The position numbers were made by a program, and so were the translations under genes. Positions 62,659 through 63,528 of a DNA stretch of 64,000 nucleotides are shown here, piece by piece; the stretch's first letter is position 1; the number at the start of each line of letters is the position of its first letter. The DNA is from Escherichia coli. Its GTDB lineage: Bacteria; Pseudomonadota; Gammaproteobacteria; Enterobacterales; Enterobacteriaceae. The stretch lies in the NCBI RefSeq assembly GCF_013122565.1, contig NZ_CP053258.1; one strand, given 5' to 3'. The notes below the pieces were generated by a model. It was not told the origin of the DNA. It saw nothing but the letters and a program-made list of their open reading frames with translations, and did no database searches.

Positions 62659-62743
62659 TTCAGGGGTAGCATCTTTGCTGTAATGACATTAGCGTTACAT
62701 GTACTGTATAATTATCATCCATGCAAAGCCGAAGGATATATTT

Positions 62744-63037
62744 ATGCCAGCAGCCAATAACATTCCAGCCAGGCGCGAATCTTTAAATTTGCGCATAAAA
62801 CCCGCAGAACGCGATCTTATTGACCGGGCCGCTAAAGCCCGAGGAAAAAATCGCACCGAATTTGTCCTTGAGGCCGCCAGAGCCGCAGCTGAAGAGGCGC
62901 TCATTGAGCAGAGAATTTTCAGGATCGATTCTGATGATTACCAGCTATTTTTGAATCGTCTGGATCAGCCCCCCGCGCCCAATGCTGCATTACGCAAAAC
63001 CATGCAAACACCCGCGCCGTGGGAGCAAAAAAAATGA
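62744..63037 (+). CDS. RHH-type antitoxin of the DUF1778 family (TacA/AtaR-like)
   Basis: ORF track 62699-63037; start at ATG 62744 with AAGGA Shine-Dalgarno gives 97 aa [59 protein letters not shown]...; TATAAT at 62707-62712; stop overlaps the toxin start (ATGA). Confidence 0.8.
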
Positions 63038-63528
63038 TTCAGGCCCCCGAACCACTCCTGGCAAGGCATCAATTCACTTCTTTTTGCTCGGGAGTAGAAA
63101 CAATGGATAACTGGCTAAAGCAGAGAGCCCTAAAAAATCAGCTTGCCGGCGCATCACGTACATTTGTTAGCTGTGATACGTATAGCAACGTTTTGGCATA
63201 TTATTCGCTTGCTTCCAGCGCCGTTGAAACGTATGTCGCGACAGGACGATTTCGCCGAAATATGCCAGAACCGATCCCTGTTGTAGTACTTGGTCGTCTG
63301 GCAATAGATAAATCGTTACAGGGTCAGGGTATCGGTCGTGCGATGGTCAGAGATGCCGGTCTACGAGTACTACAGGCGGCTGAAGTCATTGGTATTCGCG
63401 GAATGTTGGTCCATGCGTTATCAGACCAGGCCCGTGAGTTTTATCTGCGAGTGGGGTTTGAACCATCGCCTGTCGATTCTATGATACTGATGGCAACATT
63501 GGCTGATTTGCAGGAATGTCTTAAATAG
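63034..63528 (+). CDS. GNAT-family acetyltransferase toxin (TacT/AtaT/ItaT-like, predicted aminoacyl-tRNA acetylating)
   Basis: ORF track 63019-63528 (GTG); ATG at 63034 gives 164 aa [36 protein letters not shown]...; acetyl-CoA binding motif [17 protein letters not shown]. Confidence 0.8.

Follow-up and report, generated by a model that had tools for sequence, protein, structure and literature searches.

A probable TacA2/TacT2-type toxin–antitoxin operon between rne and flgL in part of Escherichia coli

Introduction

The 64,000-nucleotide stretch of Escherichia coli DNA analysed here (contig NZ_CP053258.1 of RefSeq assembly GCF_013122565.1; called the window throughout) carries, between rne and flgL, two short overlapping genes that an earlier note, made from the letters alone, had read as a toxin–antitoxin (TA) module composed of a ribbon-helix-helix (RHH) antitoxin and a GNAT acetyltransferase toxin. 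The locus raises the questions of which kind of GNAT module this is, whether it is still likely to work, and how it came to lie between these two genes. The module is probably an intact, presumably autoregulated GNAT/RHH (DUF1778) type II TA operon of the TacA2/TacT2 subtype, acting by the mechanism proposed below. The chemistry and structure of this family are well known, the genes are already labelled in RefSeq ('GNAT family N-acetyltransferase' and 'type II toxin-antitoxin system TacA family antitoxin'), and the exact protein sequences of both toxin and antitoxin are already in public databases, so that the module is, as the earlier note had said, not novel in kind.

The genes and the functional sites of the toxin are located as follows.

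62744–63037, + strand: antitoxin gene, 97 amino acids, TacA2-like (ATG at 62744, TGA at 63035–63037)
63034–63528, + strand: toxin gene, 164 amino acids, TacT2-like GNAT acetyltransferase (ATG at 63034, TAG at 63526–63528)
63118–63120, + strand: codon of Lys29 of the toxin, from the gap-free alignment with TacT2
63295–63297, + strand: codon of Arg88, in the positive surface groove, from the alignment with TacT2
63319–63336, + strand: acetyl-CoA motif Q-x-x-G-x-G, reading QGQGIG at toxin residues 96–101, within the Pfam GNAT match
63442–63444, + strand: codon of the catalytic Tyr137, from gap-free alignments with TacT2 and the 7AK7 chain

Protein family and subtype

Both open reading frames (ORFs) and the acetyl-CoA motif exist as the earlier note had described them, with the antitoxin gene upstream and the ATGA start-stop overlap at 63034–63037, and matches in PDB and Pfam back both proteins. 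The toxin matches 15 solved GNAT toxin structures, with 7ak7_A as the best of them (E=1.1e-75, without gaps over 162 residues), and the Pfam GNAT families Acetyltransf_7, _10 and _1 (E=7e-9). The antitoxin matches 7ak7_C (E=1.4e-45), has TacA, KacA and AtaR among its PDB homologues, and falls into Pfam PF08681 TacA1, formerly DUF1778 (E=1.5e-26), with a weak RHH_1 match in addition. The matches of toxin and antitoxin alike are far beyond chance. The structure 7AK7 is the Salmonella TacA2/TacT2 complex, containing two toxin and four antitoxin chains, and its chain 7ak7_A is the TacT2 of Supplementary Table 4 of Bikmetov 2022 except for phenylalanine at position 137, which is the inactive Y137F mutant. 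An assignment of 7AK7 to TacAT3 was rejected, as TacT3 is 6G96, which matches the window toxin only at 2e-15.

Among the characterised toxins, whose sequences were taken from the machine-read table of Bikmetov 2022 with a few reading errors, too few to alter the ranking, BLASTP identity to the window toxin is highest for TacT2 (74.5%), followed by GmvT (48%), TacT1 (47%), AtaT2 (44%), KacT (39%), AtaT (33%), TacT3 (29%) and ItaT (26%). The neighbour-joining tree likewise pairs the window toxin with TacT2, in a group that also holds TacT1, AtaT2 and GmvT, and places AtaT and ItaT on separate branches. The earlier label of a TacT/AtaT/ItaT-type toxin thus held for the family and narrows to the TacT2 type, but the window toxin is neither AtaT-like nor ItaT-like. 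The antitoxin has the layout of an N-terminal ribbon-helix-helix followed by a C-terminal toxin-neutralising segment, and 79/97 of its residues (81%) are identical to Salmonella TacA2; only two positions differ in the RHH region (residues 13–58), the C-terminal segment (77–97) is nearly identical, and the linker between them (59–76) has diverged.

Longer in-frame ORFs, of 112 amino acids from 62699 and of 169 amino acids from a GTG at 63019, were rejected as the true genes on account of the enterobacterial homologues examined, whose N-termini read MPAAN... and MI(Q/S)xPEPL.... The junction of the two genes holds an A8 run (63027–63034), and two 260-residue 'fused' antitoxin–toxin proteins (P0001 and P0004) occur in public Logan assemblies; in P0001 a 2-nt deletion (TG in CCGTGGGAG; window region 63015–63037) joins both frames. 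Such fused proteins are a rare variant or an assembly error.

Promoter and candidate operator

The signals around the gene pair are the following.

62680–62698, no strand: putative operator GTAATGACATTAGCGTTAC, a half-degenerate copy of GTAATGAC-N3-GTCATTAC that overlaps the -35 hexamer at 62683–62688
62683–62712, + strand: sigma-70-type promoter, with -35 ATGACA at 62683–62688, an 18-nt spacer and -10 TATAAT at 62707–62712
62732–62736, + strand: Shine-Dalgarno sequence AAGGA of the antitoxin gene, 7 nt 5' of the ATG at 62744
63021–63025, + strand: Shine-Dalgarno sequence GGGAG of the toxin gene, within the 3' end of the antitoxin gene and 8 nt 5' of the ATG at 63034

The promoter-like site matches 11/12 consensus positions in the promoter scan and lies downstream of the rne terminator, which bears out the TATAAT promoter that had been proposed for the pair, and its -35 and -10 regions are also kept in the Salmonella, Klebsiella and Leclercia cassettes. 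The module had been said to start at 62700 and to end at 63528; the end is the stop of the toxin gene, but the start falls in the promoter spacer and not in a gene. An Rfam scan of 62400–63800 gave chance-level matches only.

Within 62660–62743, where the earlier note had suggested looking for antitoxin-bound palindromes, lies the half-degenerate candidate listed above. For the operator comparison, the 110 nt 5' of the antitoxin start were taken from 48 homologous loci, which comprise 43 distant loci from a genome scan together with those of Salmonella, Klebsiella, Leclercia, Escherichia sp. E4385 and the window. The palindrome GTAATGAC-N3-GTCATTAC was present at no more than four mismatches in 44/48 loci, against 11/2400 shuffled controls, and lies 37–75 nt before the antitoxin start codon, with a perfect copy in seven loci. 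Its hosts are alpha-, beta- and gammaproteobacteria as well as two Bryobacterales genomes, all with TacA2/TacT2-type modules, and no report of the motif was found in the open-access literature. The window copy has three mismatches, all in the right arm (AGCGTTAC), and a degenerate right arm is common to the enterobacterial copies. No other site within 33 kb of the module comes as close to the palindrome as three mismatches, and the whole 64 kb contain one further such site only, at three mismatches, at 28742. The base outside each arm co-varies, being TGTAA...TTACA in Escherichia and CGTAA...TTACG in Salmonella, Klebsiella and Leclercia. The pseudo-palindrome at 62680–62698 is likely the operator, judging from its conservation across these loci. 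The 8-bp palindrome TACATGTA (62696–62703) was also considered and is probably not an operator, being broken in E2348/69 and not conserved.

Likely activity and selection

The toxicity of TacT2 needs Y137 and R88, since the substitutions Y137F and R88G abolish it, and a natural difference at residue 29 separates its toxic form (K29, S. Enteritidis) from a barely toxic one (E29, S. Typhimurium) (Rycroft 2018, PMC5959882). The window toxin keeps K29, that is the toxic form, together with R88, Y137 and F17 in the gap-free alignment with TacT2. Comparison of the window with Escherichia sp. E4385 shows both genes to be under purifying selection, with a ratio of nonsynonymous to synonymous divergence (dN/dS) of 0.09 in the antitoxin gene and 0.10 in the toxin gene, and both are annotated as coding sequences in 59/59 full-length carriers sampled from the complete-genome set. 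The retained K29, R88 and Y137, the dN/dS of about 0.1 and the intact carriers point to a maintained, and by this sequence evidence presumably functional, pair.

Several points weigh against reading the pair as a working, autoregulated TA operon. Toxicity, neutralisation, substrate and operator binding are all predictions. The toxin differs from TacT2 at 26% of its residues, and its potency or substrate range could differ too; a change in potency is conceivable because of these differences, and the single substitution K29E already attenuates TacT2. In the operator, the right arm keeps 5/8 positions, and repression through this degenerate half-site may be weaker than in relatives with a perfect palindrome, or differently organised; the left arm includes the -35 hexamer, which could explain part of its conservation. 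Neither protein was matched in the NCBIfam and PADLOC scans, which is uninformative as these libraries hold no fitting model.

A rival reading is a module that has been attenuated or domesticated, in which the genes are intact and the toxin is weak or non-toxic at native levels, as reported for S. Typhimurium TacT2. The pair would then have no effect on physiology and be kept only as a remnant, harmless or selfish. The divergence from TacT2 and the degenerate operator half-site agree with this, and in Salmonella one natural substitution (E29) is enough to render TacT2 non-toxic on overexpression. However, the window toxin has K29, R88 and Y137, the dN/dS is about 0.1 for toxin and antitoxin alike, the 59/59 sampled full-length carriers have both genes annotated as intact, and an inert toxin would not keep its antitoxin under comparable constraint, all of which make attenuation unlikely.

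Predicted substrate and proposed mechanism

In vivo, Gly-tRNAGly is almost the sole target of clade D toxins, among them TacT, TacT2, GmvT, AtaT2 and TacT3; AtaT and KacT of clade A and ItaT of clade B accept a broader range of substrates, and the specificity determinants of GNAT toxins are left undefined (Bikmetov 2022, PMC9177977). Because the window toxin groups with TacT2, Gly-tRNAGly should be its substrate, this being the best prediction by homology and the outcome of the comparison with AtaT, ItaT and TacT toxins that the earlier note had proposed, in which TacT2 came out closest.

In the proposed mechanism, the operon would be transcribed from the promoter predicted at 62683–62712, with a start site expected near 62719, and its two genes would be translationally coupled through the ATGA overlap, which is itself seen in the sequence. 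The toxin, when free, would cause ribosome stalling at glycine codons and growth arrest, as suggested by its 74.5% identity to TacT2 and the retention of K29, R88 and Y137. The C-terminal segment of the antitoxin would neutralise it within a 2:4 toxin–antitoxin complex, by analogy with 7AK7, and the RHH dimers of the antitoxin would bind the pseudo-palindrome over the -35 hexamer and repress the operon, as the retention of this palindrome across homologous loci suggests. In KacAT, a heterohexamer attaches to a pseudo-palindrome within the promoter of the operon itself and shows conditional cooperativity (PMC6698736), and by analogy a complex of this kind, with four antitoxins and two toxins, would occupy the operator here and block RNA polymerase. 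Detoxification of the acetylated tRNA would presumably fall to peptidyl-tRNA hydrolase, which has been shown to act in this way for the Salmonella toxins.

A substrate other or broader than Gly-tRNAGly, either several aminoacyl-tRNAs as for AtaT and ItaT or protein lysines, is improbable to about the same degree as attenuation. TacT2 and its relatives acetylated several elongator aminoacyl-tRNAs in vitro, acetylation of proteins has been claimed for AtaT in enterohaemorrhagic E. coli (PMC7957018), and with the specificity determinants undefined the sequence by itself cannot settle the matter. In vivo, however, 5/5 of the additional clade D toxins tested, TacT2 included, acted almost exclusively on Gly-tRNAGly, and the window toxin groups with TacT2, next to four Gly-specific clade D toxins.

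A main role in anti-phage abortive infection, in which infection depletes the antitoxin and the freed toxin halts translation, could coexist with the mechanism above, being a matter of biological role and not of chemistry, and is somewhat less probable again. Several other type II TA families act as defence systems, the module belongs to the accessory genome and occupies a variable spot, and GNAT toxin homologues occur on some phage and prophage records. Against such a role, neither protein matched a PADLOC model, the flanks are rne and flgL with no neighbouring defence genes, and the characterised relatives are tied to persistence and not to phage defence.

Distribution, insertion and origin

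The spot that holds the probable TacA2/TacT2-type operon is laid out as follows.

59425–62610, + strand: rne, with its stop at 62610, convergent with flgL
62629–62662, + strand: intrinsic terminator of rne (hairpin at 62629–62652, then a T run), from the terminator scan; identical in K-12
62670–63543, + strand: inserted cassette of about 874 bp, with ends approximate to a few bases, from alignment with K-12, E. albertii and E. fergusonii
63553–63581, - strand: intrinsic terminator of flgL, from the terminator scan; kept in K-12 and E. albertii

The rne terminator forms the left edge of this variable spot and the flgL terminator its right edge, and the 3' end of flgL follows on the - strand with its stop codon at 63623–63625. 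The full stretch without homology to K-12 is 62662–63543, or 882 bp. The cassette (62676–63543) was detected in 686/5426 complete E. coli genomes, about one in eight, at 95–99.1% identity; it was always single-copy and chromosomal in the carriers of this set, and was at rne–flgL in every carrier inspected. Among the carriers are E2348/69 (enteropathogenic E. coli, EPEC), SMS-3-5 and an avian pathogenic (APEC) O78:H4 strain. It is absent from K-12 and from the O157:H7 genome sampled, where the rne–flgL site is empty, as it also is in E. albertii and E. fergusonii. The statement of the earlier note that K-12 lacks a module here was correct by alignment of its rne–flgL region, and of the description as strain-specific accessory content the word accessory stands, but the cassette is lineage-specific and also occupies the same site in Escherichia sp. 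E4385.

In K-12, 64 bp separate the two terminators, with no similarity to the 882 bp of the window, and a search of this spacer for remnants of the cassette found none (best local alignment 17, against a shuffle mean of 18.3), so that the K-12 state was rejected as a visible deletion scar. Because the K-12 and E. albertii spacers are homologous, the empty site is, as read from these alignments, the ancestral state; the cassette was inserted later, taking the place of the 64-bp spacer in part of the genus Escherichia. The cassette carries no transposase or mobility genes, and no flanking repeats were noticed in the junction alignments. In Escherichia sp. E4385, where the flanking genes are about 9% diverged from those of the window, synonymous divergence from the window is 0.15–0.22 for the cassette and 0.35–0.42 for the flanking rne and flgL, all from small counts; a synonymous divergence below that of its flanks suggests that, once inserted, the cassette may have been exchanged among Escherichia lineages through homologous recombination.

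TacT2-type modules of 60–79% identity are found throughout Proteobacteria, with unrelated neighbourhoods in the loci inspected, as expected of a mobile cassette family. The contig scan of genomes returned 49 loci, mostly distant proteobacterial ones, and no Escherichia or Salmonella locus, for which exact-peptide seeding and the use of one genome per species are the likely cause; these genera were reached by protein look-ups. No plasmid copies occurred in the 5426-genome E. coli set, and the E. coli 'plasmid' matches in PLSDB, records of 0.73 Mb and 4.9 Mb, were set aside as apparently chromosomal sequence filed as plasmids. A 'remnant' copy in strain HS-02 (NZ_CP172818.1), a homopolymer-rich junk stretch of about cassette length with a partial GNAT pseudogene call by PGAP, was likewise discarded, as it resembles a local failure of assembly or polishing and not biological decay. 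Phages or phage-plasmids carry GNAT toxin modules as well, since the records of the Escherichia phages CMS-2020a and Cyrano (~108 kb) include a GNAT toxin of the KacT/AtaT type with 35% identity to that of the window.

The spot between rne and flgL holds different cargo across genera, as the flgL–rne gap of S. bongori carries a gene for an MFS transporter and a divergent gene for a LysR regulator. In the window, the flanks of the cassette are 96.9% identical to K-12, and the segment 62600–63640 has no exact match among the 5426 complete E. coli genomes; as the best match is 99.1%, this lineage is unrepresented at identity in the RefSeq complete set. ORFs of up to 325 amino acids, antisense or out of frame, are also present within rne (- strand 60916–61893 and neighbours), and these long ORFs in the repetitive, low-complexity C-terminal half of the gene are most likely compositional artefacts and not genes.

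Possible read-through into flgL

No + strand terminator follows the toxin gene (63529–63625), where the only hairpin is the flgL terminator, with its U run on the other strand and a + strand fold z-score of -0.8. Because the cassette has no + strand terminator of its own and faces the 3' end of flgL, antisense read-through is conceivable, and in carrier lineages only, cassette transcripts could run into flgL when the operator is released (at low antitoxin or excess toxin), coupling the state of the TA module to expression of the flagellar hook-filament junction. Such coupling is a long shot.

Significance

The TacAT2 type is a fourth type of GNAT/RHH module in E. coli, beside AtaRT, AtaRT2 and ItaRT. 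No experimental study of the E. coli rne–flgL locus was found in the open-access literature, subscription journals being outside the search. To the existing annotation are added the subtype, the predicted Gly-tRNAGly substrate, the toxic-type K29 allele, the candidate operator and the direction of insertion. The cassette is a real but ordinary accessory element, with little discovery value and modest practical value, and the rne–flgL spacer is a small variable spot, potentially useful for marking lineages of carriers, EPEC E2348/69 among them.

Comparison with known systems

Within E. coli, AtaR/AtaT, AtaR2/AtaT2 (O157:H7) and ItaR/ItaT (HS, BL21) share the DUF1778/RHH plus GNAT architecture, and AtaT, AtaT2 and ItaT share the acetylation of aminoacyl-tRNA that is predicted for the window toxin. 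The window toxin is distinct from all three, at the identities of 33%, 44% and 26% given above, and AtaT and ItaT are broad or Ile-directed in specificity, unlike the predicted Gly specificity of the window toxin. ItaRT also lies at a different locus (EcHS_A0501), and ItaT, of ~19.8 kDa, has its catalytic tyrosine at Y150. The catalytic tyrosine of the window toxin, Tyr137, corresponds to Y137 of TacT2, Y140 of TacT and Y143 of TacT3.

The KacA/KacT–DNA complex of K. pneumoniae (PDB 5ZGN), with four antitoxins and two toxins on the pseudo-palindrome of their own promoter, offers the model for regulation, but toxin identity to the window is only 39%. The DNA-reading residues R8, D10 and R12 of KacA correspond, with an offset in the alignment, to S13, N15 and R17 of the window antitoxin; as only the R12 equivalent is kept, the operator sequence would be expected to differ from that of KacAT. 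Closer to the window pair is KacAT2 of Klebsiella pneumoniae (among the clade 2 GNAT-RHH loci; PMC9431474), which is likewise a chromosomal TacT2-type module. The Klebsiella homologue P0071 shows 74% identity to the window toxin and shares its operator core, but its chromosomal neighbourhood differs from the Escherichia one. The KacAT2 toxin is closer to Salmonella TacT2 (88%, PMC9431474) than the Escherichia protein is.

The closest characterised system is TacA2/TacT2 of Salmonella enterica (7AK7; Rycroft 2018; Grabe 2021, cited in PMC9431474), which has the same gene order and overlap as the window pair, with a toxin 74.5% identical without gaps, an antitoxin 81% identical, K29, R88 and Y137 kept, and a shared promoter/operator core, GTAATGACAT..GCGTTAC and then GT(T/A)(G/C)TGTATA(A/C)T. 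The two differ in the diverged antitoxin linker (residues 59–76) and in about 50 bp of upstream sequence that is common to the Salmonella, Klebsiella and Leclercia copies and that the Escherichia cassette lacks. Synonymous sites between the Salmonella and Escherichia copies are saturated, so that their split is old and a recent transfer from Salmonella is excluded. Salmonella tacAT2 stands beside PAP2, dsbD, cutA and dcuA-type genes, and the Escherichia copy between rne and flgL; because these chromosomal sites differ, the Escherichia cassette is a homologue of the same subtype and not a positional orthologue.

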